From assembly GCA_963752285.1 (NCBI GenBank), contig CAVVXN010000005.1, forward strand, positions 1,408,001 to 1,472,000: DNA of 64,000 bases, read 5' to 3'. Numbering within the stretch: position 1 is the first letter of the stretch; each line of letters starts with the position of its first letter. A model generated the notes under the pieces. The model did not search any database and was not told the DNA's origin. It saw nothing but the letters and a program-made list of their open reading frames with translations. The position numbers and the translations under genes were made by a program. The DNA is from an uncultured Planctomycetota bacterium. Lineage in GTDB: Bacteria; Planctomycetota; PLA2; JAEUHO01. Shown piece after piece: positions 21,205-52,073 of this stretch.

Positions 21205-21274
21205 GGTGGGCCTCCGACCGGAGATCCTACTCCCGCGGGCCCGTCGCCCCGGGCGCGGTGAGGGGCGGCGCGGC

Positions 21275-21344: not shown

Positions 21345-21387
21345 GCAGGGCGGCCCCCGAAGCGTCCTGGGCGGGACGGCGCGGAGG

Positions 21388-26054: not shown

Positions 26055-26220
26055 GCGCCGAAGGGTACGAGACGGGGCGGCGGGCGGGGCCCTTTCCGGG
26101 ACTGCGCCGGCCCCGCCGGGGACCCGTCCTTCGCCCCCCCACCGCGCCCGGGCACGCCCCGGGACGCCCCGGCGGGGACCCGCGCGGTCCACGAGCCGGT
26201 CGGGTCCCCGCGCCCGACGT

Positions 26221-32285: not shown

Positions 32286-32363
32286 GGTGACAGTAGCTCA
32301 GATGGTTAGAGCGCCGGACTGTGGCTCCGGAGGTCGGGGGTTCGATTCCCCTCTGTCACCCCA
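32286..32363 (+). tRNA. tRNA-His (GTG)
   Basis: G-1 plus acceptor GTGACAG/CTGTCAC, D arm GCTC...GAGC, anticodon arm CCGGA-CT-GTG-GC-TCCGG, T arm GGGGG-TTCGATT-CCCCT, C discriminator, encoded CCA. Confidence 0.97.
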
Positions 32364-34472: not shown

Positions 34473-37400
34473 ATGGACCCAGGCAGAGAGTACCGGGAGC
34501 TCCTCGCCGCCGACGCAGCGCTGATGCTGGGCGTCGCCGAGGCGCATGACGTCGCGGCGGCCCTGATGCGCTACTGGCCACGGCGGGATGAACCGGGCGC
34601 GTCCTTCGGGTCGGAGCTCGCCCACATCGCGCGGCTCTCCCCCGAGGTCGTGAAGAGGATCGAGGCCGAGGTCGAGCGCCTACTAAGCGAGGCAGGCGCG
34701 GACGCGAAGGTCGCGCTCACGCGCCACGGGGGGCTCGATCGATCCATCCACCTGGCGCTGGGCCAGGGCGGCGCGAACCTGACGCGCGCGCTCTCGGTGC
34801 TCGGGATCCCGATTCGCGCGCCGCTGCGCTCTCTGCCCGAGGACCGCTACGTCGGATTCGAGGCCGCCGGCATCGGCGGGATGGGGGTCGTCTACGCCGC
34901 GATCGACACGGAGATGAACCGGCGCGTGGCCTTCAAGATGGTGCGGCTCCACGCCGAGCGGGGGAAGACGGAGCAGACGCCGTCCCATCCCCTCGAGGCA
35001 TCGCGGCCTGGGAAGGACACGCCCGAGTCGGAGGTCTTCGAGCAGTTGAAGGCCCGGCTCGTGCAGGAGGCGTGGGTCACGGGCGGGCTCGAGCACCCGG
35101 GGATCGTCCCGGTCTACGAGATCGGCCAGACGCCCACCGGGATCCCCTACTACACGATGCGCTACGTCCGGGGCGAGCGCACGCTCGGCGACGCGATCGG
35201 CGAGAAGCGGAACGCTCCGATCGAGGAACGGCTCGCGCTCCTGGAGCCCTTCCTCAAGGTCTGCGACACGCTCCGCTACGCCCACGACAAGGGCGTCGTC
35301 CACCGGGACTTGAAGCCCGCGAACGTCGCTCTCGGCCAATACGGCGAGGTGGTGCTCCTGGACTGGGGCCTGGCGCGGCTGGAGGGCAAGGAGGACGTGG
35401 CCTCCTCGGCCTGGCAGGAGCGGGTGGAGGAGATGCGCCACGACGCGGGCTTCCACACGATGGAGGGGGGCGCGATCGGGACGGCGGGCTACATGTCGCC
35501 CGAGGCCACGCTGGGAAGGCTGGCGGAGGTGGACCCGCGAAGCGACGTCTACTCCCTCGGGGCGATGCTCTACGAGATCCTGACCGGGCGTCTCCCCTAC
35601 GAGTTTCGCTCCTACGCCGAGTACGCGGCGCTGCTGCTCCGGAAGGACCCGCCCGAGGCCCGGGAGGTGGATCCCTCGGTGCCGGAGGCCCTCTCCTCGC
35701 TCTCTGCGAAGGCGCTCGCCCGGGAGAAGGAGGCGCGGCCCGCCTCGGCCGAGGAGATGGCGAAGGCGGTCCGAGCCTGGCAGGTCGAGGACGCGGCGGA
35801 GCGGGAGCGGGAGGGGCTGCTCAGGGACGCCCGCACCGCGCTCGAATCGGCCGAGCGCCTGACGGGCGAGGCGAAGCTCCAGCAGGTGGACCGGGCGGCG
35901 GCGGCGCTGGCCCAAGCGGAGAGCAAGCGGCCGGGCGGGCGGCGGGCCAGGGCGCTCACCGAGCGGGCGCAGGCGCTTCGGGAGACGGCGATCCGGGAGC
36001 GGGAGCGGGCCAGCACGCGGCGGACGCTCCGCCGGGTCGGGGTCGCCGCGCTGGCGGTCGTGGCGGTCGCAGCGTTCGTGGTGACGACGGTGATCGAGGG
36101 GAAGCGCAAGGAGGCGGAGAAGGCGCGGACCGAGGCGGTCGAAGCGAAGCATGCGACCGAGGCGGCGCTCTCCGAGAAGGCCCAGGCGCTCGTCGAGGTC
36201 GGCAAGGAGCGCGACCGGGCGAACCAGGAACGCGACGCGAAGGCGACGGCACTCGACGACGTGCTGCGCCTCGCGGACTCGAGGAAGGTGGCCGACCTCC
36301 TGGCAGAGGCGGACCGGCTCTGGCCGCTCGTGCCCGAGCAGGCCGCCGACATGGAGGCCTGGATCGAGCGCGCCAAGGACGTCCTCGCCCGGCGTAGGGA
36401 CCACCAGAAGCGCCTGGCCGCGATCCGCGAGGGAGCCCTTCCCTACACGGAGGAGGCGAGGGCGAAGGACCACGAGGCCGATCGAAAGGCCATCGGGGAG
36501 GGGATGAAGCGCCTCGTGGAGATCGAGGCCGCCAGGGTGACGGTCGAGGGCGACGACGCGGAGGCGAAGAAGAGGGCGCTCGACGAACAGGCCGAGGCGG
36601 TGAGGAAGGAGGTCGCGAGGCTCGAGACCGGGCTCGACGAGCGGCACGCTTGGGCCTTCGAGGACCCGCAGGTGGACTGGCAGCACGGGGTGCTCGTGGA
36701 CCTGCTGGCGGGACTCGACCGGATCGACGGAGGCGGGAGTGAGGGGGAGGGCGGATTCCTCGCCGACATCGAGAAGCGCCGCGACCTCGTGACCGCGCTC
36801 CGCAAGCGTTCGATCGACGACTGCGAGAAGGCCTGGGAGGACACGATCGCGGCGATCGCCGCCTCTCCGCGGTACGGGGGCCTGAAGATCACGCCGCAGC
36901 TCGGGCTCGTCCCGTTGGGGGAGGACCCGGACTCCCACCTCTTCGAGTTCGCGCACCTGGGCTCGGGGTCGGTCCCCACGCGGGACGAGAAGGGACACCT
37001 CGTCCCGGAGGAGGACGCCGCGGTCGTGCTGGTCCTGATCCCGGGGGGGACGTTCCAGATGGGCGCGCAGAAGGAGGACAAGGACGGGCCGAACCACGAC
37101 CCCGAGGCCGAGGACGACGAGTCGCCCGTCCACGAGGTGACGCTCTCGCCCTTCTTCCTGTCGAAGTACGAGTGCACGCAGGCCGAGTGGAGGGCGCTGA
37201 CGGGGGGGCTCGACCCGAGCTACTTCAAGGCCGGCACGACATTCCGCGGGCGGGAGGTCACGCCGAGGAACCCGGTCGAGCAGGTCTCCTGGGAGGACTG
37301 CGACCTATGGCTCTCGCGAAACCGCCTCGTGCTCCCCACGGAGGCCCAGTGGGAGTACGCGTGCCGGGCGGGGACGGACACGCCCTGGATCACGGGCCGG

Positions 37401-37781
37401 GATGTCGCGAAGTTGGGAGAGGTCGCCAACATCGCCGACGCCTGGCTGAAGGGGAACGGGTGGGCGACCTGGACAGTGACGCCCGAGGTGGACGACGGGC
37501 ATACAGTCCACGCACCCACTGGCGCTTTCGCACCGAACGCGTTCGGACTCTACGACGTGCACGGGAACGTCTGGGAGTGGTGCGCCGACGCCTACCGCGA
37601 CTACGAAACAGGAGCTGTGACCGACCCGCTCGTCCAGCAGGGCTCCGGCCTCCGCGTGCTCCGCGGCGGGTCGTGGCTCAGCGCCGCCAGGTACGCGCGT
37701 TCGGCCTTCCGCTTCGGGGCCGCCCCGGGGTTCTGCGACCAAGACCTCGGCGTGCGTCCCGCCAGGCCCGTCACCCCTTAG
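34473..37781 (+). CDS. Ser/Thr protein kinase, TM, coiled coil and C-terminal FGE-sulfatase (CLec-fold) domain
   Basis: Kinase: GIGGMGVVY, VAFK, HRDLKPAN, DWG, GTAGYMSPE, SDVYSLG. FGE: FQMG, PVEQVSW, LPTEAQWEYACRAG, NAFGLYDVHGNVWEWC, RVLRGGSW...R...P...LGVR. Confidence 0.93.
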   Translation: MDPGREYRELLAADAALMLGVAEAHDVAAALMRYWPRRDEPGASFGSELAHIARLSPEVVKRIEAEVERLLSEAGADAKVALTRHGGLDRSIHLALGQGGANLTRALSVLGIPIRAPLRSLPEDRYVGFEAAGIGGMGVVYAAIDTEMNRRVAFKMVRLHAERGKTEQTPSHPLEASRPGKDTPESEVFEQLKARLVQEAWVTGGLEHPGIVPVYEIGQTPTGIPYYTMRYVRGERTLGDAIGEKRNAPIEERLALLEPFLKVCDTLRYAHDKGVVHRDLKPANVALGQYGEVVLLDWGLARLEGKEDVASSAWQERVEEMRHDAGFHTMEGGAIGTAGYMSPEATLGRLAEVDPRSDVYSLGAMLYEILTGRLPYEFRSYAEYAALLLRKDPPEAREVDPSVPEALSSLSAKALAREKEARPASAEEMAKAVRAWQVEDAAEREREGLLRDARTALESAERLTGEAKLQQVDRAAAALAQAESKRPGGRRARALTERAQALRETAIRERERASTRRTLRRVGVAALAVVAVAAFVVTTVIEGKRKEAEKARTEAVEAKHATEAALSEKAQALVEVGKERDRANQERDAKATALDDVLRLADSRKVADLLAEADRLWPLVPEQAADMEAWIERAKDVLARRRDHQKRLAAIREGALPYTEEARAKDHEADRKAIGEGMKRLVEIEAARVTVEGDDAEAKKRALDEQAEAVRKEVARLETGLDERHAWAFEDPQVDWQHGVLVDLLAGLDRIDGGGSEGEGGFLADIEKRRDLVTALRKRSIDDCEKAWEDTIAAIAASPRYGGLKITPQLGLVPLGEDPDSHLFEFAHLGSGSVPTRDEKGHLVPEEDAAVVLVLIPGGTFQMGAQKEDKDGPNHDPEAEDDESPVHEVTLSPFFLSKYECTQAEWRALTGGLDPSYFKAGTTFRGREVTPRNPVEQVSWEDCDLWLSRNRLVLPTEAQWEYACRAGTDTPWITGRDVAKLGEVANIADAWLKGNGWATWTVTPEVDDGHTVHAPTGAFAPNAFGLYDVHGNVWEWCADAYRDYETGAVTDPLVQQGSGLRVLRGGSWLSAARYARSAFRFGAAPGFCDQDLGVRPARPVTP

Positions 37782-38292: not shown

Positions 38293-38811
38293 TCAGCCGC
38301 GCCGGGGGCGGGGCCGTGAGCGCTTCGGCGTTGAACGAGCTTCCGCGGCCCCCGGCGACCTCGTGCCGGCACCCCCCTTGCGCTCGACGCGGGCGTGGAA
38401 CATGCGGTAGTGCTCCTGGATGCGCGCCGCGTAGGCAGGGTCGCTGCGGAGCAGCTCGGTCACGAGCCCGAGCAGGGGCCGGGCGAGCTCCGTCTCGGGG
38501 CTCCCGAGGTTCAGGGCCGGCCCCTGCAGGCTGTCGAGCAGCACCTCGTCGTCCTCGCCCGACCAGCGGGCGTAGAACTCCCTCGGCTCCCACCCCCACG
38601 CGATCACCGCTTCCGGGCCCCGACGCCGGGACGACAGGACGCAGAGGAACACGCGCCGGCAGTCGCAGCCGCGCTCGTCGCAGAACATCTCGGCGAGGCC
38701 GTACTCCCCCACGGGGAGCGCGGCCTTCGTGGACCCCGGCGGCACGATGAGCGTCCGAGTCTCCCGCTCGGCGATCTCTGGGAAGAAGTCGTGGAACAGG
38801 CGGTACGGCAT
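38293..38811 (-). CDS. Hypothetical Cys-motif protein (family often fused to SEC-C)
   Basis: MPYRLFHDFFPEIAERETR...GEYGLAEMFCDERGCDCRRVF...IAWGWE...Y.ARIQEHYRMF. Confidence 0.65.
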   Translation of the reverse strand: MPYRLFHDFFPEIAERETRTLIVPPGSTKAALPVGEYGLAEMFCDERGCDCRRVFLCVLSSRRRGPEAVIAWGWEPREFYARWSGEDDEVLLDSLQGPALNLGSPETELARPLLGLVTELLRSDPAYAARIQEHYRMFHARVERKGGAGTRSPGAAEARSTPKRSRPRPRRG

Positions 38812-39403
38812 GGGACTCCCCGGCCGGGTGGCGCGCCCCATCGTCCATGCCGACACGGACACCGGGGCCGTCGCGGGCGCCGCCCGGACCGGGGATCCGC
38901 GAAGGCTGAGAGCCTGCATCGCCGTCGGGCGGGGCCCCGGCTTGGGCCCGACGATTCTTCCAGCGGCCCTGCGGCGGGTGCTGGAGGAGCCCGGCCAATT
39001 GACGCGCCCCTTCTACCCGGTCCCGGGGACATCCGGGCGGCCCCGGGTCGCCGGAGAGGAGGCTGGGCAGGGCCAGCCCCCGGAACGAACTCGGGGGCCG
39101 CGGTCGCCAGGTCGTGGACGTCCGCGGCGGCGACTTGGCCCTGCATCGCGAGAGGGGCAGCGGCGGCGCGGACGGGGACGAGGACGCCCACGGGGGGCCG
39201 CCCGCACTCACGGCAGAGGGGCTCGTCGCGGGAGACCGGGGCCCGGACGGACTGCCGCCGTACGGATCCGTGGATGCGAGCCACGACGGAGTCGCGGCGG
39301 GAGCCGTTGCGCGGCACGGGCTTTGACTACCATGATCGGGAGCCACCTCGGGGCCCGTCCTCACCATCGAGATCCCACGCGTCGAGAAGGGAGACGACCG
39401 AGA

Positions 39404-40840
39404 ATGCGGCGCACCCTCGCGATCCTCGCTGCGCTCGGTGTGCTGTCGGGCCTGGTCTGGGTGGTGCGCGGGTTCGCCCTCCTGCCCGGGTCCTCGACCT
39501 CGAAGGCGGGCACGAGTCAGTACGCGCCGAACATCCGTCCCCATGACCTCCCGCCGGCGCCAACACTCGTAGGTCGAGCCGAGGACACCGCCTCGCCCGT
39601 TCCAGGAGACGAAGCGAAGCCGATCACTCTACGGGTCCACGTGCAGGACGAAGAGGGCCGACCCATAGGCGGCGCGCATCTATGGGTGCGCGGGGAGTCC
39701 GTCGGCGCGACGAGCACGGATGGATCCGCTATCGTGACGTGGTCCGAGCCATTTTCGTACGTCGTGACCGTCGCTCCGGGTTTCGTGGCCGGGGAGGACG
39801 AGCTGAGCGTGGCGGACGGCGGGACCTTGCTCGTGGAACTGCGGCGAGGAGCCGTGCTCGAAGGTAGGGTTGTTGAAGGGGGCACCGGGAAGCCGATTGA
39901 GAATGCACGCGTGTTGACGGGCAAAGAGGGCCACGCCGACGGTGCAGAGGCGTTCCCATGGTTCCAGGAGGCCACCACCGACGCGACGGGCCGGTTCCGA
40001 CTCGACTCGCTTGGGACGGATGATGCGCGGCTTTGGGTGGAGGCACGCGGATGGTCGCGGGCGCGGGCGCGTATTCACGTGACGGACGACGGGCGCGTAG
40101 ACCCGGAACATGTCCTACTCGAGGTCCGGCCCGCTGGGTGGCTCGCCGCCCGCGTGACACGATCGAACGGCGCGCCCGCGGCATCGGCGCTCCTCATCCT
40201 CCAGCCCGAAGGAGTCCAGCCGTTCGCGCCGGGAGCGTACGTCGGCCCCTCGACTCTCCGCGACCTCTGGTTCGATTCCGCGACACTGCTCGCAACGACG
40301 GATGAGCGGGGTCATGCCTTGATTCCAGGGCTCCCGTTCGGCGCTAGATTCACTCTGTCCGTTTGCGACACCGTCGAAGCCGATGTCGCCGCACCGCCGA
40401 CTGTGCACGCAACCGCGGAGGTCCCCGAGATCTTGCTGGAACGACGCCTGCGCGCACCGGCTACGCTGCACCTGCGCTGCTCAGGGATCGAGCCGGCCGC
40501 CGTCGCGTCCGTCGATATCGAGATCGACGGCCAGGAGGCACCGCAGTGCACTGCTCCCGGGCCGCGTATCGCGGCTGCAACGGGGGTCGTACCGGGTCAC
40601 CACGCGGTAGTTGCCACTGCTCCGGATCACCTACCCGTCGCCCTCGATGCTGACTTCGGCGAGGGAACTACCGTCGAACGGGATGTCACCTTCGAGCCCG
40701 GCTCTGAACTCTCTGGGGTGGTAGTCGATGACCGCCCGCGTGACGGCGATCGGCGCGGCCCCCCTTCTTGCCGTCGCGGCGGCGGCCATCCTCCGCCTCG
40801 CACCCGACATCCAAGAGCAGATCCTGTTCCTCGGGGATAG
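39404..40840 (+). CDS. Exported carboxypeptidase-regulatory-like (Ig-like) repeat protein, probably 3'-truncated near 40735
   Basis: Signal anchor and repeated V.DEEGRPIGGA, GRVVE..TGKPIENA...TDATGRF units. The last repeat breaks off at GVVVDDR into low-complexity sequence. Confidence 0.65.
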   Translation: MRRTLAILAALGVLSGLVWVVRGFALLPGSSTSKAGTSQYAPNIRPHDLPPAPTLVGRAEDTASPVPGDEAKPITLRVHVQDEEGRPIGGAHLWVRGESVGATSTDGSAIVTWSEPFSYVVTVAPGFVAGEDELSVADGGTLLVELRRGAVLEGRVVEGGTGKPIENARVLTGKEGHADGAEAFPWFQEATTDATGRFRLDSLGTDDARLWVEARGWSRARARIHVTDDGRVDPEHVLLEVRPAGWLAARVTRSNGAPAASALLILQPEGVQPFAPGAYVGPSTLRDLWFDSATLLATTDERGHALIPGLPFGARFTLSVCDTVEADVAAPPTVHATAEVPEILLERRLRAPATLHLRCSGIEPAAVASVDIEIDGQEAPQCTAPGPRIAAATGVVPGHHAVVATAPDHLPVALDADFGEGTTVERDVTFEPGSELSGVVVDDRPRDGDRRGPPSCRRGGGHPPPRTRHPRADPVPRG

Positions 40841-40920
40841 GGCGCCCACGCACCGGAGCCTGCTGGGGCTCGTGGCCAACCCACTCTGGGCGGCGCAGCG
40901 GAGGGCGAGGAGGGCACTCT
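40728..40920 (+). pseudogene. Remnant of a serine-recombinase-associated small protein
   Basis: ARVT...LRLAPDIQEQILFL...L.....W.AQR matches the recalled motif RARVTQIMNLL.LAPDIQE.ILFL...W..QR. Confidence 0.5.
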
Positions 40921-41091
40921 CCTCCCATCCGTCGCCTTCGTGGCGCCGGCTACGGATCCCAGCGAGCGTGCGCAGCTTCGACGGCTTGGTGCCCTCGGGG
41001 CGCGCCCGCTGGGATGAGCGCGCAGGGGAGACTACCACGACAACCCCCTTCGCATAGCCCACGAGAGGGGTCGTCGAGTAAGATCGCCCAC

Positions 41092-42300
41092 ATGCCGCAA
41101 CAGCAGAAGGCCGCGTGGCGTGGAATCGCGATCGGGATCGCCGTGGGGCTCACGATCGCGGGTACTGCGGCTGGGACCTGGCTGTGGATTCGCTCTCGGA
41201 GTTCTGGCCCGAAGCGCCGCAGGTACATGCCTACCCTTGAGTCTGAGGTCGAGCGGTTCACGCCGAAGTTCCCGCGCACGGACCTGACGGCAGGCTTGAT
41301 CGACGTCCCACTGCAGCTCAAGACGGGTCTATTCCAGCCCAACTACGACATTGGCGACGCACCGGACGGGCGCTCTGCGCTCTGGCGCATGGATGGTCAC
41401 CGCTGGCAGGCGTTGAATGCGGATCTGTCCACAAGGATCGAGGTTGTAGTCCCCGAGGCCACTACTCCTGTCGTTTGGCTAGCGACGGCCTCGGGGAAGA
41501 CACTGCGAATCGACGACGGAACCCCCGGTGGCAAGCCTGGATTGACTGCATTCCGAGATGATGGATCGACCGCGTGGACTTGGGAGTCTCCCTTTCCAGA
41601 TGATGACTTCGGTTGGTCGGAGATCCTCTACGACGACGACGGCGCGGCCGGACTGGCACTTTCATTTGGGGGGGACGCAGGTCTAGTTGCGGTCAATTTG
41701 CAGGGTCAGCAACTCTGGCACGTTCCGAAGCAGTACGTCTCATACGAGATGTCGACTCACCGGGCCTTGCCGGGCTACCTCCTGCACATCGGTGGCGACG
41801 CCGTATTGTTCGGCTCCGCTGCCTCGGGAGCATCGCCGAAGGTTCTCCTAGGCTCAACCGGCGATGAAAGGGGGCGCTACAACGCTGGCACATACATCAC
41901 GCATGGTCGCATATTCCCGGACCGCAGCGGGCGTCCGGCTCTCTTGTTGACCGGCCAGAGCGGGAAGACCCCGCCGGTTCTGATTCGGTCTGACGCAGCG
42001 GGAGTAGAGATTTGGCGCGCGGAACTCCCAAGCGAGGCGGAGGCTATTGAAATGGTCGAACCGCCCGGCATGCCCCGGGTGTTCCTTGTCGCGACGAGCG
42101 GAGGCGAACTACTTGCCGTTGGCGACGACGGAACACTGTACTGGACTGAGCGTCTTCCGGATACGTCAGACGGCGATCGTACTGCTGTCTACCACCTGAG
42201 CGCCGGCGAACTCAGCCCTGGAGCTTGGGGTGTGTGCGTTCGTCTTCTGAAGCAACAGCTTCTGTTTCGGGTTCATCCAGAACGGCTCCGACATCGCTGA
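41092..42300 (+). CDS. Membrane-anchored hypothetical protein, PQQ-like beta-propeller; lower GC
   Basis: N-terminal TM; repeated (A/L)...DG...W units (AFRDDGSTAW, AVNLQGQQLW, DAAGVEIW, AVGDDGTLYW); many A/T-ending codons. Confidence 0.65.
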   Translation: MPQQQKAAWRGIAIGIAVGLTIAGTAAGTWLWIRSRSSGPKRRRYMPTLESEVERFTPKFPRTDLTAGLIDVPLQLKTGLFQPNYDIGDAPDGRSALWRMDGHRWQALNADLSTRIEVVVPEATTPVVWLATASGKTLRIDDGTPGGKPGLTAFRDDGSTAWTWESPFPDDDFGWSEILYDDDGAAGLALSFGGDAGLVAVNLQGQQLWHVPKQYVSYEMSTHRALPGYLLHIGGDAVLFGSAASGASPKVLLGSTGDERGRYNAGTYITHGRIFPDRSGRPALLLTGQSGKTPPVLIRSDAAGVEIWRAELPSEAEAIEMVEPPGMPRVFLVATSGGELLAVGDDGTLYWTERLPDTSDGDRTAVYHLSAGELSPGAWGVCVRLLKQQLLFRVHPERLRHR

Positions 42301-42312
42301 CAAGTGCGCCAC

Positions 42313-42651
42313 TTAGCGAGCGCCGTTCGCCTTGCTTGCGCAGTCGGTGCACGGCCTCGCGAGATCAGTGTCGCTGTCGTCCCCGCAGACCGGGCACGGC
42401 CACGGCCCCCAGCCGCGATCGTCGTGGTCGGCGATGCGCCCGTCGCACCCGCACGGGCACGCCGGGTCCTCGTCGATGGCGAATCCGCGGAACACGCCGC
42501 GCGCGTAGAGGGCGCGGTGCTCGCGGACTCACCGCGCGCAGGGGTCGTAGCCCATCGCGTCGGCGATCCGTGCGACCGCCGGGCGGTCGAGCATGTTCGT
42601 GAGGCCCGAGAGCCGGACGGCCTCGAGTGCCTCACAGACCGCGTGGATCAC
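42313..42651 (-). pseudogene. DUF5049-like gene with internal stop, plus Cys-rich tail
   Basis: EALEAVRLSGLTNMLDRPAVARIADAMGY...R*VREHRALYARGVFRGF; in-frame TGA at 42529-42531 where Trp would be expected. Confidence 0.6.
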
Positions 42652-43251
42652 GTGTGGCGTGGCATGCCGACTCGTGGCGGCCCACTATTTCGCACCCAGA
42701 GTGGACCCCATTCCATATCGACGAGTCGGGCGAACGTCGGCGGTCACTGCGGCGGCCCCGACATCAGCCACATCGCCGGGCCCAGCCGACCGCTGCGAGG
42801 GTCGAGCGTTGGGACGCACCATTCACCGCCTTGGCCGCGATAGGCGCGAAGCTCCACCGCTTCGTCCTGAACCTGCTGTGTGTCGCCTTTCAGACGCAGA
42901 TCCCAGATGTCCATGGTCGTGCGACCGAACTGGGGGTCGAACCAGGCACGGAGGTGACCGCAACGCCCGAGAATCCGGGGGCGACGACGGCCGGTCGGGG
43001 AACGGGCTGCCGGGCGTAGGAGCGGGAATCCGAGCCGGACCGGGGCTTGGAGAGCAGGAGCGAGATCCTGACGCGCCCCGGCCGGAGCCCCTGTCGAGAG
43101 AAGACGGGCGTTGCGCATGCCGGGGCCGTTCGGGGGGGCGGCGAGGGGCGGGGCGCGACCTTCGTCCCGGGCGCGGCCGGATTCGGCCGGGGGAACCTCC
43201 CGGGGCCTGCGCATCACCCTTCGGCGCCCCTCCGCGCCGGGAGCTCGTGCG

Positions 43252-46113
43252 ATGTGGAAGATCGTCCGCGGTTCGTCGTTCCTCCTCCTCTTCTGCCTCC
43301 CCGTCACGGCGCTCTCGGGTGGGCTCGTCGGCTGCGGCGGCGCGGGCTTCGCGAGCGGGACCGAGGTCGGAGGCGTGGGGAGCCCGCCCTACGCCTCGAT
43401 CGGCGAGCTCGAGGACGACATCGCGGCGAAGGCGAACTCGACCGTGGCCGAGGAACGCGCCGACGCCGACGGCGACGGGCTCCCGGACCTGGTCGAGGCG
43501 CGCCTCGGCACCGACCCGGCCGAGCGGGACACCGATCGAGACGGACTCGTGGACGGGTTCGAGCTCCTCGGCGCGCCGCACGCGCGGCTCGATCCCCTGC
43601 CCGACCGCGACCACGACGGGCTCATCGCGCCGCTCGACAGCGACGACGACGGGAACCATCAGAACGACGGGCTCACGATCGACACCGACGGGGACGGCGT
43701 TCCCAACTACCTCGAGCTCTACGGCTACACGTACGACGTGCTCTCGGGACGCTTCGAGCTCTGGAACGGCGACCCCTCGGTCCCCCACTTCTTCACCGAC
43801 CCGCTCCAGCCGTCTACCGACCAGGACGCGTACCCCGACGGCATGGAGGCCTCCGGAGCGCTCGAGGATCCCACCGTCAGGTCGCCGGGCGACGACCCGC
43901 TGGTTCCCGCGTGCCCGGACATCGTGTGCGAGGTCGTGAGCTACTCCGTCACGCTGAACGAGGACGTCCAGGTCTCGCAGTCGGAGTCGTACTCCAAGGG
44001 CGAGTCCTGGTCCCGGCAGACGGACCAGTCGCACTCGTTCGGCGTGGAGACGAGCTGGGAGGTGGGCGCCGAGTACGACTTCAGCGCCACGGGCGGTTTC
44101 AAGGCCAGCGCGAAGCTCGGCCAGTCGTACCAGTTCACCAACTCGACCACCACCTCGGTCGCGAAGGGAACGTCGATCACCGACGACACGGGCTGGTCGG
44201 AGGCCCGGAGCGCCAACCCGACCCGTGCCGCGCTGCTGAAGCTCTACCTCCGCGTGACGAATCGAGGCACCGCGCCCGTGAGCAACATGGTGCCCACGCT
44301 CTCCCTCAAGATTGGAGGGCTCAACGTGGCGACCTTCGAGCCGGCGGGAGCGAACGTGAACCTGCTGGTCCCGGGGGCCACCTACCCCGCCGAGCCGGGC
44401 TGGCTCTGGGTCGTCGATGCGCGGAACACGGGCGGCGGGACCGAGCCCCTCACCCTCACCATGTCCGAGCTCCGGGCCCTCGAACGCGGCGCGCCGATCT
44501 CTCTTACGGTGACGCAAGTGAAGGGCGACGCGATGCGCCTCGCGGACGGCGGCGCCTGGGAGAGCGTCGGCGACACGACCGAGTTCACCGCGCGTTGCGA
44601 CGCCGTCTGCGCCAACCTGCAGATCGAGCTCGGGGACGGCACGCGGGTCCACGACATGGTGTACGCCGACGACGCCCCCTCGTCGCCGCCGATGACGCTG
44701 GGCCAGGCGCTCGCCAAGCTCGGCGTGGACGAGGGGGGATCTCTCCACTACGCCGATGAACACGGCACGCCGAACACCCAGTCGCTCGAGGGGTTCGACA
44801 TCGCGATCGACGCCCCGACGCTGCGGGCCGACGGGTGGACGCTCGCCGCGGACGATCCCACCGGCGCCACCGCGAACGAGGCACCGCCGGGATTCGTCTT
44901 CTCCGACATGCGCCTCCGTCCCGGCTCGGTGGTCTACGTCCGCGCCCCGCGCCCCGCCCTGGAGCCCCCCGGACCGACCGTCTACTTCGCCACGCTCGAC
45001 TCGGACACCGGGGAGATCCAGGTCTCGGCCGCCGACTACGAGGGCATCACGCGCGTCGTCGTCCACAATCAGCTCGACCCCGCCGAGGAGGGGTACCGCG
45101 AGCAGGTCCTGTACGAGACGGTCCCCGGGGCGGGGCTCTTCAGCGGCAACGCCCGGGGGCCGGGCGGATTCGACGGCTCCGACGACCTCACGGCCGACGT
45201 CGTGAACCTCGCGGGCTTCGTCGAGTCCCGTCCCCTCGGCTCGCTCTACGTGGCGCCGGGTCCCCAGAAGCCGTTGATCCACGAGGCGAGCCTCGACCTG
45301 AACGCGCTCCGTGTCTACGCCAACGTCGAGAGCGGGAACCCCGACAACCCCAACTCGAACATCCAGTGGGTCCGCGCGTACCACCCGGACTTCGCCGGCG
45401 GGTTCGTCGAGCTCACAGAGGTCTACGACTACTACCGCGACCCGTACGGCTTCGAGGCGCCCCTCCCCGCGGACTTCGGGAAGGACCATCCCCAGGACGT
45501 CGAGGTCGTGGCGTACGTCGAACCCGGGGTCTTGACCACCACCCTGCTGAGCATCGAGGACGCGCAGCCGGCCGCGGTCCGGCACATCGAGACGCGGACC
45601 CTGCGCGCGGAAGCGAAGGCCACCGTCGCGGGGGGTGCGACCGCGTGGGAAACCCCGCAACTGACGCTCGACGCGGCACCCACCGCCTCCGTGGTCGTTG
45701 TCGCCAAGACGACCACGCCCAACGACATCCTGAACCGGTCCCAGCCCCCCGCCCCACCGCCCCCGCCGGTGGACCTCGTCCTGCAGATGGACGCGAACAG
45801 CCTGAGCGCATGGGCACGATTCCTGTGGAACGCCCAGTACGAGAAGCTCGCCGTGGGCGGCCTGGACACCTACCGGTCGATGACCCGCGAGGACATCCTC
45901 ACCCGCTTCCCCGAACTCACGAGCCAGGACGAGCAGAAGGTGGGCTCGAACAGCAACGCCGACCTCAAGCCGGGGGACGTCCTCGCGATCAAGACCACGG
46001 CCGGCTTCCCCGCCAAGCTCTACCTCGAGAGCGTCACGTACGACCACAACCTCCTGTGGGGCGACTTCTGGGCCTTGGTGCGGGTGCGGTACGTGGTCTT
46101 CGAGAAGCCGTAG
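43252..46113 (+). CDS. Lipoprotein homologue of anthrax protective antigen/binary toxin B (beta-pore-forming), 953 aa
   Basis: Lipobox LVG-C28 and DxDxDG repeats. Collinear PA-like motifs: DTDGDGVPNYLELYGYT, STDQDAYPD..E, PLVPACP, NED, Ser/Thr-rich stem, NRGTAPVSNMVPTLSL, LVPGATYP, PLTLTMSELRALE, QVKG, MTLGQAL, LRPG. Confidence 0.88.
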   Translation: MWKIVRGSSFLLLFCLPVTALSGGLVGCGGAGFASGTEVGGVGSPPYASIGELEDDIAAKANSTVAEERADADGDGLPDLVEARLGTDPAERDTDRDGLVDGFELLGAPHARLDPLPDRDHDGLIAPLDSDDDGNHQNDGLTIDTDGDGVPNYLELYGYTYDVLSGRFELWNGDPSVPHFFTDPLQPSTDQDAYPDGMEASGALEDPTVRSPGDDPLVPACPDIVCEVVSYSVTLNEDVQVSQSESYSKGESWSRQTDQSHSFGVETSWEVGAEYDFSATGGFKASAKLGQSYQFTNSTTTSVAKGTSITDDTGWSEARSANPTRAALLKLYLRVTNRGTAPVSNMVPTLSLKIGGLNVATFEPAGANVNLLVPGATYPAEPGWLWVVDARNTGGGTEPLTLTMSELRALERGAPISLTVTQVKGDAMRLADGGAWESVGDTTEFTARCDAVCANLQIELGDGTRVHDMVYADDAPSSPPMTLGQALAKLGVDEGGSLHYADEHGTPNTQSLEGFDIAIDAPTLRADGWTLAADDPTGATANEAPPGFVFSDMRLRPGSVVYVRAPRPALEPPGPTVYFATLDSDTGEIQVSAADYEGITRVVVHNQLDPAEEGYREQVLYETVPGAGLFSGNARGPGGFDGSDDLTADVVNLAGFVESRPLGSLYVAPGPQKPLIHEASLDLNALRVYANVESGNPDNPNSNIQWVRAYHPDFAGGFVELTEVYDYYRDPYGFEAPLPADFGKDHPQDVEVVAYVEPGVLTTTLLSIEDAQPAAVRHIETRTLRAEAKATVAGGATAWETPQLTLDAAPTASVVVVAKTTTPNDILNRSQPPAPPPPPVDLVLQMDANSLSAWARFLWNAQYEKLAVGGLDTYRSMTREDILTRFPELTSQDEQKVGSNSNADLKPGDVLAIKTTAGFPAKLYLESVTYDHNLLWGDFWALVRVRYVVFEKP

Positions 46114-46195
46114 ACCACGCGGCCACCGGGCGTTCACGGGCGCCCGGTGGCTCCGCTTGTCGGCCGGCCGGTCGAGCCGGTAGGCTCACCCGGGC

Positions 46196-49100
46196 GTGGG
46201 GACTCCTCTCGACCGCGTGGCAGAGCTCTTCGGGCAGGCGCGTCGGCTCGCCGCGCCGGAGCGCGGTCCCTTCCTCGATCGGGCGTGCCCGGGCGATCCG
46301 GCCCTCCGGGCCGAGGTCGAGGAGCTCGTTCAGATCCACGAGGCGTCGGAGGGTGCGAGCGAGGTCCATCCGCTCGCGCGCGCCCTGCCGGCGCTCGCGC
46401 TCCCGGCCGCGGCGGAGACCGACGCCGCGGCCGAGGCCCTCCCCGAAATCGACGGCTTCTCCGTGCTCCGCCGCCTCGCGGACGGCGGCATGGGGACCGT
46501 GTACCTCGCGGAGCAGGATCGGCCCCACCGCGCCGTCGCGTTGAAGGTGCTCCGGCCGGAGGCGGCGACGCCCGAGGGGCGACGCCGCTTCGAGCGCGAG
46601 GCGGAGGCCCTCGCGCGCCTGGAGCACCCGGGCATCGCGCGCGTGCTCCTCTTCGGCTCGACGAGGGGGCCGGGCGCGCCGAGGCCCTTCCTCGCGATGG
46701 AGCTCGTCGAAGGCGAGCCGGTGACGAGGGCCCTCGCCGGGCGGGGCCTCCCGACGCGCGTCGCGGTCCTCGCCGAGGTGGCCGAGGCCGTGGCGCACGC
46801 CCACGCGAAGGGCGTGATCCACCGCGACCTGAAGCCCGACAACGTGCTCGTCGGCCCGGACGGACGACCGAAGGTCGTGGACTTCGGCGTCGCGCGACTC
46901 GTGGACGACGCGCTGACGTGGCAGACGCGTGCGGGCCACGTGATCGGGACGCTCGCGTACATGAGTCCCGAGCAGGCGCGCGGCGACGCCGCGGGGGCCG
47001 ACACGCGGAGCGACGTCTACGCGCTCGGCGTCGTGCTCTACGAGGTGCTGACGGGCCGTCATCCGCTCGGCGACCGCCACGGCACGTTCACGGAGATCGT
47101 GCGGCGGATCCTCGAGGAGACGCCGCCGCCGCCCGGCGCCCTCGACCCGCGACTCCGTGGCGACCTCAGCCTGATCGTCACGAAGGCGATGGCCAAGGAC
47201 CCCGCCGAGCGCTACTCCGGCGCGGGCGCGCTGGCGGAGGACCTGAGACGGCACCTCGCGGACGAACCGATCCTCGCGCGGTCCCTGACCGGAACGTACG
47301 CGGTTCGCCGGTTCCTCCGCCGGCATCGCGCGCTCGTCGCGGCGTCGGCGGCCGCGCTCGTCGCCATCGTGGCCGGGCTCGTCGGGGCGCTGGACCTCGC
47401 GCACGCCGAGCGCCGCGCGCGCGAGCGTGCGGACGAGAGCGCCGCGGCGACCGAGCGTGCGCTGGCCGACCGGAGCATCGAGCTCGCGGCGAGCGCACTC
47501 CGGGAGCACGAGGCGGAAGGCGCCGCGCGGGCCCTCGAGAGCGTCCCGCTCGCACTCCGCGGATGGGAGTGGAGGTACCTCCACGCCCACGCCGACCAGA
47601 GCGCGGCGTGGGAACCGCTCGACCTCGGCCGGATCGCGGGCGCGGCGCTGGGACCGGAGGGGGACGGGTACGTCGTCGCGACGGAAGACGGGCGCCTCGC
47701 GTTTCGCGGGCCAAAGGACGACGCGGCCCGCCCGCTCGCGGTGCCCGCCGGCGCCGCGCCGCGCGCGGTGGGCGTGCTCGGCGGCGATCTCGTCGGCGTC
47801 CTCCAGGCGGGGGGACGCTTCACGCTCGTGGACGCGTCGGGCCGGACGCGGCTCGAGGGCGAGACCTCCCACGGGCGCCACCTCCATGCCCTCGCCACGT
47901 CGCCCCGGGCCGACCGGGTGGCCCTCGCGTGGGACGGGGGCACGGGCTGGTGCCCCCTCGAGGTCCTGGACGCCGAGACCGGCGAGCCGGTCTGGCGCAC
48001 CGCGGGCTCGCTGATCGAGACGCGTGCGCTCGCGTTCTCGCCCGACGGGCGGCTCCTCGCGACCGCGAGCGGCTGGGACGGCGTCGTTCGTCTGCTGGAC
48101 CTCGAGGAGAAGAAGGCGCTCCCGACCGAGATCCGGGGCCACACGGGGTCGGTCTGCGCCGTCGCGTTCTCACCGGACGGCCACCGTCTCGCGACGGGCG
48201 GCGACGACCGGACCGTGCGCGTGTGGGACGCCCGTTCCGGCACGGAGCAGGCCCGCCTCGTGGGCCACCAGGGTCGCGTGCTCGCCGCCGCCTTCGCGCC
48301 CGCAGGCGACCGGCTCGCGACCGCGAGCGAGGACGGGACCGTCCGACTCTGGGACCCGGAGGGAGGGGAGGCCGAAGCGGTCCTGGTGGGGCACCGCGGC
48401 GCGGTCCACGCGGTGGCGTTCTCGGCCGACGGCCAGACGCTCGTCTCGCTCGGAGACGACGGCCGGCGCACGTGGCGCCTCGGCACGGACGCGTCCCTGC
48501 TCCGCGTACACGCCGCCGCGGACGAGGGCAACCGGTATCCGTACGTGTACGCCGCGCGGTTCTCCCCGGACGGCCGACGCCTCGCCTCGGCCGGATGGGA
48601 CGGCACCGTCCGCGTCGTGGACGTGGAGACGGGTCGCCTCGAGCGGACGCTGACGCTCGACCTCGGCCCCGTCCTCGACGCGCGCTGGAGCGCCGACGGG
48701 AGGTCGCTCCTCGCCAGCCGGGGCGGCGTGGTCCGATGGGACGTCGCGACGGGCATTGAGGTCGCGCGCTGGACGACTTCGAGCTCGGTGAACGCCCTGC
48801 TCGTGACCCCGGACGGCGCACGCGTGGTCACCGCGGACGAGGGCGGGACGGTGCGCCTCCACCGGCTCTCGGACCTCGAGCCGGTGGCCACCTTCGCGCG
48901 CCACCTCGGGGGGATCCAGGAGGCGGCCCTCGCGGGGGACGGCCGCGCCGTGGCGACGGTGACGGACCGCGGCGTGGTGGACGTGCTCGCCCTGCCGGAC
49001 GGCGCGCCGCGGTGGCACCGCCGCGTGAACGCGCCGGGTCCGTTCGGCAGCGTCGCGTTCTCGCCCGACGGACGGACGCTCGCGACCGCCGGCGCCGACG

Positions 49101-49402
49101 GACGCGTGCGTCTCCTCGACGCAGCGACGGGCGAAGAGCGAACGGTCCTCGCGGGTCACGCCGCGCCCGTGTACGCGCTCGCGTGGCTCCCGGACGGATC
49201 GCGCCTCTTCTCGGGCGATCGGCGCGGCCTGATCCGCGTCTGGGACCCGCGCTCGGGGCGGCTTGGCCTGGAGCTCCGCGGCCACCAGGGCTACGTGTAC
49301 CGGCTCGACGTCTCCCCCGACGGCACGCGCCTCGCCTCGGCCTCCGGCGACGACACGGTGCGCGTCTGGTCGGCCCCCCGCGACGAGGAGGGCGGGCGAT
49401 GA
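46196..49402 (+). CDS. Ser/Thr protein kinase with TM helix and WD40 repeats
   Basis: DGGMGTVY, VALK, HRDLKPDN, DFG, GTLAYMSPEQ, LRGDL..I..KA..KDP; WEWRYL; many GH...V..VAFSPDG..LAT...D.TVRVWD repeats. Confidence 0.93.
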   Translation: MGTPLDRVAELFGQARRLAAPERGPFLDRACPGDPALRAEVEELVQIHEASEGASEVHPLARALPALALPAAAETDAAAEALPEIDGFSVLRRLADGGMGTVYLAEQDRPHRAVALKVLRPEAATPEGRRRFEREAEALARLEHPGIARVLLFGSTRGPGAPRPFLAMELVEGEPVTRALAGRGLPTRVAVLAEVAEAVAHAHAKGVIHRDLKPDNVLVGPDGRPKVVDFGVARLVDDALTWQTRAGHVIGTLAYMSPEQARGDAAGADTRSDVYALGVVLYEVLTGRHPLGDRHGTFTEIVRRILEETPPPPGALDPRLRGDLSLIVTKAMAKDPAERYSGAGALAEDLRRHLADEPILARSLTGTYAVRRFLRRHRALVAASAAALVAIVAGLVGALDLAHAERRARERADESAAATERALADRSIELAASALREHEAEGAARALESVPLALRGWEWRYLHAHADQSAAWEPLDLGRIAGAALGPEGDGYVVATEDGRLAFRGPKDDAARPLAVPAGAAPRAVGVLGGDLVGVLQAGGRFTLVDASGRTRLEGETSHGRHLHALATSPRADRVALAWDGGTGWCPLEVLDAETGEPVWRTAGSLIETRALAFSPDGRLLATASGWDGVVRLLDLEEKKALPTEIRGHTGSVCAVAFSPDGHRLATGGDDRTVRVWDARSGTEQARLVGHQGRVLAAAFAPAGDRLATASEDGTVRLWDPEGGEAEAVLVGHRGAVHAVAFSADGQTLVSLGDDGRRTWRLGTDASLLRVHAAADEGNRYPYVYAARFSPDGRRLASAGWDGTVRVVDVETGRLERTLTLDLGPVLDARWSADGRSLLASRGGVVRWDVATGIEVARWTTSSSVNALLVTPDGARVVTADEGGTVRLHRLSDLEPVATFARHLGGIQEAALAGDGRAVATVTDRGVVDVLALPDGAPRWHRRVNAPGPFGSVAFSPDGRTLATAGADGRVRLLDAATGEERTVLAGHAAPVYALAWLPDGSRLFSGDRRGLIRVWDPRSGRLGLELRGHQGYVYRLDVSPDGTRLASASGDDTVRVWSAPRDEEGGR

Positions 49403-49968
49403 AGGAGGCCGACCGAAGGGCCGAGGCCACACGGATCCTCTGCGACGCGGGCGACGGACCGGACGTGGACCTCCAGGCGCTCCTGCCGCTGCTCTACGAG
49501 GAGCTTCGCGCGCTGGCGGGCGCGCTCCTCCGGCACGAGCGTCCCGGCCACACCCTGCAGCCGACCGCCCTCGTGCACGAGGCCTGGCTTCGCCTGATCG
49601 ACGCGGACCAGCTCCGATGGCAGGGCCGCACGCGCTTCCTCGCGTTGGCCGCCCGCGTGATGCGCCGCACCCTCGTGGACCACGCGCGCCGCCACGACGC
49701 GAAGAAGCGCGGGGGCGACCGGCACCGCGTCACCCTCTCCGACGCCACGCCGCTCGTCGGCGGCCCCGACGTGGACGTCCTCGCGCTCGACGAGGCCCTC
49801 CTCGCGCTCGCCGGCCTGGACGACCGGAAGTCGCGCGTGGTCGAGTACCGGTTCTTCGCCGGCATGACGATGCAGGAGGTCGCCGAGGCCCTCGGCGTCT
49901 CCGAGACGACCGCGGAGGACGACTGGTACTTCGCGCGGGCGTGGCTCGCGCGGCGCCTCGGCCCGTGA
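49399..49968 (+). CDS. ECF sigma factor, TIGR02999/kinase-associated type
   Basis: LLPLLYEELRALA...HTLQPTALVHEAWLRL...AARVMRRTLVDHAR...KRGG...VVEYRFFAG...DWYFARAWL. ATGA overlap with the kinase. Confidence 0.92.
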   Translation: MKEADRRAEATRILCDAGDGPDVDLQALLPLLYEELRALAGALLRHERPGHTLQPTALVHEAWLRLIDADQLRWQGRTRFLALAARVMRRTLVDHARRHDAKKRGGDRHRVTLSDATPLVGGPDVDVLALDEALLALAGLDDRKSRVVEYRFFAGMTMQEVAEALGVSETTAEDDWYFARAWLARRLGP

Positions 49969-50124
49969 GCCGTGGACCGCGCGGGCCGGAGGCCGTGCGG
50001 GAGGGCGGGGCGAGCGCGGCGGTCGAACGCCGCGGACGGGACCGAGGCCCCGCCCGCGGCCGGCGGAGGCGGGAGGAGGGCGCTCGCGTTGTCTAGGGGG
50101 ATGGATCTCGACCCCGGAGGACCC

Positions 50125-50346
50125 ATGAAGCTCCTGTACGCGCTCGCCTTCGCCCTCTCCCTCGCCGGGTTCGCCCGCGCCGACGGCGACACCTGCCCGC
50201 TCGAGGGTTTCGGCTGCGACAACCAGTGCCCTCTCGCCCGGGAGGCGAACCAGCACCGCGCGCTCGGCGACGAGGCCGCACGGGTGTCGCCGGTGGTCTC
50301 GAGGGACCTCGCGCTGCGGATCCAGGCGAATCTCGCGCGCATCTGA
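50125..50346 (+). CDS. Small secreted Cys-containing protein (73 aa)
   Basis: GGAGG RBS, signal peptide ARA-DG, CPLEGFGCDNQCP. Confidence 0.65.
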   Translation: MKLLYALAFALSLAGFARADGDTCPLEGFGCDNQCPLAREANQHRALGDEAARVSPVVSRDLALRIQANLARI

Positions 50347-50397
50347 CGCGCACGCGGGCCGCGGGCGCCGCCCGCCCGCGGCCCGTCCCCGCCCCTC

Positions 50398-50931
50398 GTG
50401 AGCCCCGAAGCGTTCCGACAAGCGTTCGAGACCCACCGCGACCCGGTGTTCCGGTTCCTCCTCCGCCTGTGCCGGGACCGCGCGGACGCCGAGGACCTGC
50501 TCCAGGACACCTTCGTCATGCTCTGGCGGAAACGAACGCTCTACGACGGCCGGGGGTCCTTCGAGGGCTACCTGAAACGGATCGCGTTCCGGCTCTACCT
50601 GAACCAGAGGACGCGGTCCTCGCGCCGGGCCGAGCTGGCGCCCGCGACCTCGGCGCCGGCCGACGAGATCGCGTCGCCGGCGCCCGACCGGGCCGACGAC
50701 GCGGTCCTCCCGCTGGTCGAGCGCGTGCGCGCCGTCGTGCGGGACCTGCCGGACGGACCGCGCGAGGTCTTCGTGCTCCACCGCTTCGAAGGCCTCTCCT
50801 GTCGCGAGATCGCGACGCTCACGGACGCTCCGCTCTCGACGGTCGAGAGCCGGCTTCGCCGCGCGACCGAGAGGGTCCAGGAACTCCTCCGAGGACGTGC
50901 CCAGCCCACCTGCGAGGAGCGGAACGGATGA
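50398..50931 (+). CDS. ECF RNA polymerase sigma factor
   Basis: DAEDLLQDTF, F.GYL.RIA, LP...REVFVL...EGLSCREIA...STVESRLRRA. Confidence 0.9.
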   Translation: MSPEAFRQAFETHRDPVFRFLLRLCRDRADAEDLLQDTFVMLWRKRTLYDGRGSFEGYLKRIAFRLYLNQRTRSSRRAELAPATSAPADEIASPAPDRADDAVLPLVERVRAVVRDLPDGPREVFVLHRFEGLSCREIATLTDAPLSTVESRLRRATERVQELLRGRAQPTCEERNG

Positions 50932-52073
50932 GCGACGACCCGCAGGCCTTCCGACGGACGCTCGAGGACCGGGTTCGCGACCGCCTCCTCGGACGTCTCT
51001 CGCCCGCGGCCTCGGCCGCGCTCTCCGAGGAGCTGGCGGCCGACCCCGAGTCCGCGCGCCGCGCGATGGACTACGAGGAGGCGCACCGCCTGACCGCGCC
51101 GCTCGAGAGGGACGACGCGCGGTCTCGTTCGACGTGGGCGGACCTCCGCCTCGAGCGACGGCGAATCGCGCCGCGAACCGCGGTCCTCGCCGCGGCCGCG
51201 CTCGCCCTCGCCGCGGTCGGGCTCTCGCTGCTCCTCCGCCGCGCCGCGCCCGAGCCGGTGGCCCTCGCGGCCGTCCCGCGGGCGCCCCTCCTCCTCGGCG
51301 CCGCGGCCGACCGGGACCTCCTCGCGGCGCCCCTCGTGCCCCCCTCGCTCCTCCCCTACCGCTCCACGGACGCGAAGGGCGTCCGGTGGCTCGGCGACGA
51401 GACCGCGGCGCGCGCGCTCGCGCGGTGGACCGGACGGCCGGTCTTCTCCTTCGGAATGATCCCGGGCTGCCCGTACTGCCGGCACATGGAGGTAGGGCCG
51501 CTCCGCGCGCCCGCCGTCCTGGAGCGGATGGACGGGTACGTGCCGCTCGAGCTCGACCTCTCGGGCCGCGACCCGGACGAGCTCCGCCGGATCCTCTCCG
51601 ACGGCTGGCCACGGTTCCGCATCGAGGACGCCGACGGCGCCGTGCTCGAGCGCTTCGACGGCATGTGGGAGGCGCCCGACGTCCTGCGCCGGCTCGAGAC
51701 GCCGCGGGCCGCGGCGGCGCCGGTCGCGTGGGCGGTCGCAAACCGCTGGCTCGAGACCGTGGAGCGCGCCCGCGTCGCGCTCGTCGATCGCCGGTACGGC
51801 GACGCGTGGGTCGCGCTCGACGCCGCGCGAGCGGTCGATGGCGCGCGCGAGCGTCCGGCGTGGCAGGACGCGCTCGACCGGATGGCCCGCCACGTCACGG
51901 CCGCGGCCGCCGAGGCGCTCGCCACCGCCCGTGCGGCGAGCGATCCCGCGTCGCTCCTCGAGGCGTCCGCCCGGCGCTTCCTGGGCTCGCCGTACGCCCC
52001 CGACTTCCAACGCCTCGCCGCGCGCGTTCGCGCCGACGGGACGTTCCCGCCCCTGGTGGAGGATCCCCGATGA
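50928..52073 (+). CDS. Putative anti-sigma factor with TM helix and extracytoplasmic thioredoxin-like (CPYC) domain
   Basis: Overlaps the sigma stop; anti-sigma-like N-terminus, TM, then W..D..AA..LA..TGRPVF.F...GCPYCRHME. Confidence 0.7.
   Translation: MSDDPQAFRRTLEDRVRDRLLGRLSPAASAALSEELAADPESARRAMDYEEAHRLTAPLERDDARSRSTWADLRLERRRIAPRTAVLAAAALALAAVGLSLLLRRAAPEPVALAAVPRAPLLLGAAADRDLLAAPLVPPSLLPYRSTDAKGVRWLGDETAARALARWTGRPVFSFGMIPGCPYCRHMEVGPLRAPAVLERMDGYVPLELDLSGRDPDELRRILSDGWPRFRIEDADGAVLERFDGMWEAPDVLRRLETPRAAAAPVAWAVANRWLETVERARVALVDRRYGDAWVALDAARAVDGARERPAWQDALDRMARHVTAAAAEALATARAASDPASLLEASARRFLGSPYAPDFQRLAARVRADGTFPPLVEDPR

Follow-up and report, generated by a model that had tools for sequence, protein, structure and literature searches.

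A 64,000-nucleotide stretch of DNA (the window) from an uncultured Planctomycetota bacterium (contig CAVVXN010000005.1, positions 1,408,001 to 1,472,000) carries, at 43252..46113 on its forward strand, a gene for a predicted 953-residue, lipoprotein-type homologue of the anthrax protective antigen (PA) and of the B components of binary toxins, as judged from homology searches, modelled fold and start-site alignment. By sequence and predicted structure, residues 144-566 are confirmed as homologous to domains 1′, 2 and 3 of PA and of the clostridial and Bacillus binary-toxin B components, and membership of the protein in the Bacterial_exotoxin_B (PA/binary-toxin-B) superfamily is secure. It falls in a large clade of homologues, predicted to be lipid-anchored, from which the pro-domain of PA and its phenylalanine (phi) clamp are both missing. 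To our knowledge, the function of this fold is understood solely from toxins that Gram-positive pathogens secrete. For the planctomycete protein we tentatively favour, at a little under an even chance, a surface-tethered, stand-alone pore former that resembles Vpb4 (Vip4) of Bacillus thuringiensis and acts on a foreign membrane.

Homology to protective antigen and departures from it

A homologue of PA63 domains 1′ to 3 had been proposed in an earlier note on this DNA, and Pfam, phmmer, a family profile, Foldseek and tblastn agree on it. A phmmer search against all chains of the PDB matched 39 distinct sequences, every one of which is PA, C2-II, CDTb, Ib, Vip4 or Vip1. The best of these was PA63 (E 1e-22), with residues 144-428 aligned on PA 174-460; the clostridial B components (CDTb, Ib and C2-II) match in sequence to about residue 500, and Vip4 structures match at E 1.5e-17. 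A profile built from 50 relatives extends the alignment to PA 174-596, that is, through domains 1′, 2 and 3 (E 1.3e-42), and the seven pairs of PA motifs that the note had listed are all present in the HMMER alignments. Similarly, tblastn against 72,556 plasmids returned 198 records at 25-27% identity over residues 144-567, among them pagA at 25% identity (E 1e-19). All 198 plasmid records belong to Firmicutes, and no Gram-negative plasmid copy was found among them.

The note had also named Pfam profiles against which the protein could be checked, and two of these bore it out: Binary_toxB (PF03495) matches residues 144-218 with 35.7 bits and Binary_toxB_2 (PF17475) residues 234-426 with 41.8 bits, against a cut-off of 25 in both cases. 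Binary_toxB_3 (PF17476), which represents the oligomerisation domain 3, gave no Pfam match, yet the profile of 50 relatives aligns through PA 488-596 and Foldseek covers the same region. The AlphaFold2 (AF2) model of the 953-residue protein (predicted local distance difference test, pLDDT, 84.6; predicted template modelling score, pTM, 0.65) retrieved CDTb, Vip4Da, Ib, PA and Vip1 with Foldseek at E 1e-20 to 9e-25. The best of these structural matches were to CDTb (E 8.7e-25, about 710 aligned columns), and Vip4 was matched at 7.5e-24.

Domains 1′, 2 and 3 appear in the order that they have in PA, and the dual calcium site of the first and the 2β2-2β3 hairpin with its Ser/Thr-rich stem in the second are both retained. 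The Ca-binding domain 1′ comprises residues 144-218 (43681..43905), within which the calcium-site residues D144, D146, D148 and E155, as well as further acidic residues, are invariant in the 50 relatives. The pore-forming domain 2 spans approximately residues 219-455 (43906..44616) and aligns to PA 259-487; its boundary was placed by alignment to PA numbering, with the domain limits of PA being those that we take to apply. The domain 3-like region follows at approximately residues 456-566 (44617..44949), the family profile continuing through PA 596. At the border between domains 2 and 3, a helix carries a CxxxC pair, C449/C453 (44596-44610), of which the first cysteine is present in 45 and the second in 28 of the 50 relatives. 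A disulfide between the two is possible and would be in keeping with a location outside the cytoplasm.

The reading frame comprises 953 codons with no internal stop, the ATG at 43252 is preceded by GGAG about 10 nucleotides upstream, and the 50 relatives align from residue 1. The GC content of the gene at third codon positions (GC3) is 0.93, and that at second positions (GC2) about 0.5, values typical of the genes in the window, which has an overall GC content of 73%. A wrong frame or chance similarity is ruled out by the E-values together with the GC3, and an antisense open reading frame (ORF) at 42823..46137 was dismissed as an artefact of high-GC composition.

At the N-terminus the protein departs from PA. 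Where PA has a secreted Sec signal, residues 1-28 (43252..43335) read as a basic n-region and a hydrophobic core followed by the lipobox L-V-G-C28, to which the earlier note had already drawn attention; the cysteine column is kept in 47 of the 50 relatives. On the strength of this motif, the protein is predicted to be a Sec/SPII-type lipoprotein. The PA14/PA20 pro-domain of PA, which in the translocating toxins is cleaved off by a protease before assembly, is in turn replaced by a putative Ca-binding linker at residues 66-143 (43447..43680). As the note had counted, this linker contains four extra DxDxDG (TSP3-type) motifs (residues 71, 93, 118 and 129), which precede the PA-type motif at residue 144. 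Pfam reports a weak match to TSP3_bac in the linker, and the matches of NCBIfam to CglD and MtsD are weak and at the level of the repeats. Pfam gave no match to the PA14 pro-domain at E up to 1, residues 29-170 hold no dibasic motif, and the furin-type site of PA has no counterpart here.

At the other end, the receptor-binding domain 4 of PA is replaced by the C-terminal 387 residues (567-953; 44950..46110), which AF2 models with a pLDDT of 92.7 and which, judged with Foldseek, appear to form a beta-sandwich (Ig/FN3-like) array with a terminal mixed domain. CDTb likewise has extra beta-sandwich domains past domain 3. The description of this region in the note as unrelated to PA is upheld: residues 567-953 have no sequence match in the PDB, and a Foldseek search of the PDB returned generic Ig/FN3 tandem arrays (best E 1.7e-5, TM at most 0.25). 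Every match in the Atlas scores below 0.8 and serves as a lead only, and neither Pfam, the Atlas nor Foldseek offered a clue to the ligand of these domains.

The clamp loop and the insertion hairpin

The loop at residues 386-399 (44407..44448) is the equivalent of the phi-clamp loop of PA, and two independent alignments place Gly394 on PA F427. This column is glycine in 43 of the 50 relatives, and not one of the 50 has F, W or Y anywhere in the loop D389-P399. Two further PA residues that assist the clamp, K397 and D425, are likewise not conserved, the former column being G or A in the 50 relatives and the latter variable. The clamp column was also read in a broader set, for which 246 proteins were gathered and those 189 whose match to the core hidden Markov model (HMM) exceeds 200 positions were taken as the PA-core set. 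Here the clamp column is G in 133, D in 15, a gap in 9, N in 8, A in 6, T in 5, S in 4 and E in 4, with K, Y, F, Q and V found once each; F or Y therefore occurs in 2 of 189, although the most remote members of the set are aligned with less certainty. Trp386, which is invariant (50/50), was considered as a shifted clamp and ruled out: it lies 7 residues past the conserved YP anchor, compared with 15 for F427, and the model places it one strand earlier.

The genes for CDTb, Ib and C2-II adjoin that of an ADP-ribosyltransferase. A Pfam scan of 44 ORFs of the window, which did not extend to the rest of the genome or to the loci of the relatives, shows no ADP-ribosyltransferase, no LF/EF-type enzyme (lethal factor/edema factor, the partners of PA) and no secretion system. 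Membership in the translocating subgroup (PA, CDTb, Ib, C2-II and Vpb1) thus fails on three features: there is no Phe clamp, no PA14 pro-domain and, among the ORFs scanned, no A gene nearby. By contrast, CDTb, Ib and C2-II keep the Phe clamp, according to a 2026 survey of the family (PMC13462110), in which the loss of this residue is taken as the mark of a non-translocating clade.

The same survey describes Vpb4Aa2, with an alanine clamp, asparagine for D425 and a higher conductance, as an independent cytolytic pore that acts without a partner (PMC13462110). Vpb4 is therefore the closest functional precedent. Like it, the planctomycete protein appears, on sequence grounds, to have a small clamp residue, no equivalent of D425 and no partner gene among the ORFs scanned. 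The lack of conservation of the clamp Phe, K397 and D425, on which the earlier note is silent, speaks for a pore that stands alone and against a toxin B that translocates, and with the translocating features absent it is the former that is favoured. Two differences from Vpb4 should be noted. Vpb4, a Gram-positive protein, is secreted, has a pro-domain and bears no lipid anchor. Its lumen, furthermore, is reported to be neutral (PMC13462110), whereas here three residues on the polar side of the insertion hairpin, E266, E270 and E274, speak against a neutral lumen.

This hairpin belongs to a Ser/Thr-rich stem at residues 252-312 (44005..44187), which is 33% S/T, aligns to the 2β2-2β3 region of PA and had been singled out in the earlier note as amphipathic. 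Hydrophobicity by column over the 50 relatives shows that the two strands, residues 269-277 and 283-293 (nucleotides 44056-44130), alternate strictly between hydrophobic and polar and do so throughout the family, with a tip of variable length. The AF2 pLDDT is low over residues 262-300, as expected of a loop that would unfurl and refold on insertion. The predicted amphipathic insertion hairpin is thus conserved and fits the beta-barrel pore former that the note had envisaged.

The conservation of the hairpin also bears on whether the protein forms a pore at all. It might instead be a surface adhesin or structural protein, in which the PA-like core is a Ca-dependent scaffold and the beta-sandwich array attaches. 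The C-terminal array does resemble the stalks of adhesins and receptors, if only generically, and the TSP3-type repeats recall, through the weak matches mentioned above, the Myxococcus surface lipoproteins CglD and MtsD. Nevertheless, the 50 relatives keep the alternating pattern of the hairpin together with its S/T-rich flanks, while the length of the tip differs among them. Such conservation would be difficult to account for if the hairpin did not enter a membrane, and the adhesin is the least probable of the readings considered here.

The polar face of the hairpin is, at the same time, an argument for a different activity. A glutamate is conserved at positions 266 (38/50), 270 (30/50) and 274 (26/50), and the predicted acidic face resembles the charged lumens of translocases more closely than the neutral one of Vpb4. 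The protein could accordingly be a true binary-toxin B translocase, with its enzymatic A partner encoded elsewhere in the genome and threaded despite the non-aromatic clamp. The architecture of domains 1′ to 3 appears to be fully kept, including the dual calcium site, which in characterised members docks the A components, and BECb, with a serine clamp, still translocates BECa (both from the survey; PMC13462110). Set against these points are the glycine in the clamp column, the lack of any aromatic residue in the loop, the loss of the K397 and D425 equivalents and the absence of a candidate A gene from the ORFs scanned. In addition, the N-terminal tether would emerge at the face of PA on which A components dock, and none of the 23 longer relatives described below carries a fused enzyme. 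A translocase is therefore regarded as unlikely.

Relatives of the protein and its site of action

A word-indexed search returned 97 full-length-type relatives (E at most 2.6e-84, 33-56% identity), and the relatives amount to about 100 clusters at 90% identity. Seventeen of them are named. Thirteen of these are Planctomycetota, including Tautonia rosea, and the remaining four comprise two labelled 'bacterium', one Deltaproteobacteria and one Anaeromyxobacteraceae; named members are hence mainly Planctomycetota, with some from Myxococcota-like metagenome-assembled genomes (MAGs). An exhaustive search of 1.84 billion representatives yielded 4897 matches at E at most 1e-3, 988 at 1e-10 and 155 at 1e-30, where many of the weaker matches are giants with DxDxDG repeats and some of the 155 match through these repeats alone.

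In all 23 longer relatives, the partners fused to the PA-like core are extracellular binding modules: Ig-like domains (Kre9_KNH, Big_7), BACON, PQQ-type propellers, Calx-beta, fn3, cohesin plus dockerin, LVIVD, ricin lectin, crystallin or PA14. An enzymatic toxin domain was found in none of the 23. Two environmental relatives, P0215 (3194 residues) and P0245 (2862 residues), continue from the PA-like core into PQQ-type beta-propellers, Calx-beta, fn3 and a cohesin and dockerin pair, which suggests that PA-like modules have been built into cellulosome-style surface scaffolds.

In the prepore and pore structures of PA, PA63 has its N-terminus on the side of the cap distal to the target membrane, and it is domain 4 and the stem that face this membrane. 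A lipid anchor at the N-terminus would accordingly direct both the barrel and the C-terminal array away from the membrane in which it is anchored. It is this geometry, together with the extracellular type of the domains fused in the relatives, that leads us to prefer a surface-tethered pore acting on an apposed foreign membrane. The protein would be exported by Sec and lipidated at Cys28, as its conserved lipobox suggests, and would be displayed outside the outer membrane on a DxDxDG tether stiffened by Ca2+. Domains 1′ to 3 would, by homology with PA, CDTb and Ib, assemble into a ring, which in this superfamily is heptameric or octameric. On a trigger, the Ser/Thr-rich hairpins of domain 2 would join into a long beta-barrel inserted in the membrane opposite the anchor, and the beta-sandwich array would contact the target in place of PA domain 4. 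With glycine in place of the Phe clamp in the constriction, the product would be an open, stand-alone leak pore like that of Vpb4 and no protein translocase. The target is likely a foreign cell, for instance a protist grazer, or some other membrane of a eukaryote or of a wall-less cell; the producer's own envelope is a less likely one.

The latter possibility nonetheless has to be weighed. By analogy with CsgG, the secretion channel for curli, which is reportedly a lipoprotein oligomer with a composite beta-barrel through the membrane, the protein might assemble in the periplasm into an oligomer whose composite barrel lies in the producer's outer membrane and serves as a conduit for secretion or uptake. 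The analogy is functional only, as CsgG, which inserts in the outer membrane of its producer, shares neither sequence nor fold kinship with the present protein. Such a channel would agree with the conserved lipoprotein signal, with the native composition and core chromosomal neighbourhood of the gene, and with a constriction lined by glycine, which suits a permissive channel; moreover, a family that is widespread in Planctomycetota MAGs (33-56% identity) resembles a trait of the lineage more than a toxin of scattered occurrence. However, the modules fused in the longer relatives (cohesin, dockerin, lectins) are typical of extracellular binding and adhesion, and a PA-type geometry puts the stem opposite the N-terminal anchor. 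Furthermore, no genes for a secretion system or substrate adjoin, and an open pore of the size of PA in the producer's own outer membrane would need gating, of which there is no sign. We consider a channel of this kind as unlikely as the translocase. Less probable again is the specific proposal that the PA-type ring is a built-in planctomycete envelope channel, a wide, clamp-less conduit for the export or uptake of macromolecules and not a weapon. Own-envelope channels would be of consequence for the question of how the toxin fold arose in evolution, and on this last proposal the fold of the anthrax-toxin translocase would be derived from, or co-opted as, a Gram-negative envelope machine.

Several observations also weigh against the surface-tethered, stand-alone pore. 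The cultured relative in Tautonia rosea (WP_169981349.1) lacks the lipobox Cys, and tethering is hence not universal; where it does occur, the lipoprotein could face the periplasm. Ring assembly and the width of the lumen are inferred only, by analogy with the toxins. As there is neither a removable, PA20-like pro-domain nor a dibasic site, the control of oligomerisation is left unexplained. The acidic hairpin face departs from Vpb4, as noted above, and the example of BECb means that the lack of a Phe clamp is no proof of a lack of translocation. A partner gene may be conserved at the loci of the relatives: a scan of genome contigs, which the DxDxDG pattern dominated, recovered 54 loci, none of which contains the PA-like core by hmmsearch with the PA-core HMM. 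Finally, native codon usage and a core chromosomal site (NusA, IF-2, SMC) are atypical for a mobile toxin gene; seen in its context, the gene rather resembles a housekeeping gene that is inherited vertically. Because of this counter-evidence, in particular BECb, the acidic face, the native context and the loss of the cysteine in Tautonia, the translocase and the own-envelope channel each keep a small share of the probability, and the adhesin a smaller one.

Should these proteins form pores, the host range and ecology of the fold would be widened; they might, for instance, ward off grazers or attack protists or algae. They would also provide a natural 'open-clamp' variant from which to learn what separates leak pores from translocases, and possibly new nanopore scaffolds.

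The earlier note had further considered the gene the best candidate in the window for an undescribed system. This stands in so far as no paper on planctomycete PA homologues was found in the full-text literature, subscription journals and bioRxiv supplements being outside the search. They are not mentioned in PMC3482391 or PMC8567305, by a search for terms, and the genera listed in the 2026 survey are Gram-positive only (PMC13462110). It does not stand in two other respects: the gene appears to be on its own, and the family is annotated by its domains in databases, where NCBI names the relatives 'binary toxin-like calcium binding domain-containing protein'. We therefore do not regard the protein, a lipid-anchored bearer of the PA fold from a Gram-negative phylum, without pro-domain or clamp, as categorically new, since the family is already visible in public annotation through its Pfam domains.

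Gene surroundings and other features of the window

Directly after the stop codon, a GC-rich hairpin at 46116..46159 on the forward strand (-39.3 kcal/mol, z -2.4) forms a possible terminator; it has no T-run and is absent from a scan for consensus terminators. Its position suggests that the gene is monocistronic, and the gene appears to stand alone and not to be part of a multi-gene system. There is no second PA-like gene in the 64-kb window. Two membrane-anchored proteins encoded upstream were dismissed as partners: neither has a toxin-related domain in Pfam, one carrying CarboxypepD_reg and the other having no Pfam match even at E up to 5.

Core chromosomal genes make up the window, among them those for NusA, IF-2, SMC, NrdR and ThiG. 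NusA is 83-93% identical to that of MAGs labelled Planctomycetota, from which it follows that the host is a planctomycete, as the note had presumed; unlike the hosts of the known toxins, it is a Gram-negative, environmental bacterium, of soil or water. Two large Ser/Thr kinases flank the locus. The upstream one (34473-37781, forward strand) is fused to an FGE-sulfatase domain, which resembles formylglycine-generating enzyme, and is followed by a stretch of lower GC at about 39.2-42.2 kb. The other, just downstream, occupies 46196-49402 on the forward strand and has a WD40 propeller of at least 8 repeats. After it, at 49012-52945 (forward strand), come two sigma factors of the extracytoplasmic function (ECF) type, the first with a PF07638 match in the ORF 49012-49968 and the second at 50398-50931, and then a protein rich in tetratricopeptide repeats (TPR; 50897-52945). 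The genes at 49012-52945 may constitute a regulatory module for envelope stress.

The lower-GC stretch, 39200-42200, has a GC content of 0.60-0.69 compared with 0.73 and a weaker GC3 bias, and was possibly acquired horizontally. It holds the two membrane-anchored ORFs. The first, within 38729-40840, has a likely start near 39404 and CarboxypepD_reg domains. The second, within 40768-42300, likely starts at 41116 and has an N-terminal transmembrane helix and no Pfam match; an Atlas lead (0.82-0.87) points to propellers of the PQQ/BamB type. Between this stretch and the gene for the PA homologue, 42313-42595 on the reverse strand has a high GC3 and reads as a Cys-rich peptide (CPCGC...CPVC...CTDC) with an in-frame TGA at 42529-42531. 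It could represent two tiny ORFs, a pseudogene or a case of read-through.

Elsewhere in the window, four reverse-strand ORFs with native codon bias match no Pfam family at E at most 1e-4: 5162-6733 (524 residues), 17024-19516 (831 residues), 20392-21387 (332 residues) and 53801-54712 (303 residues). A single RNA gene, that of tRNA-His (GTG) at 32287-32363 on the forward strand, was found in the window. Lastly, a single reverse-strand ORF at 25038-26267 contains both a ThiS and a ThiG domain and is an apparent ThiS-ThiG fusion.

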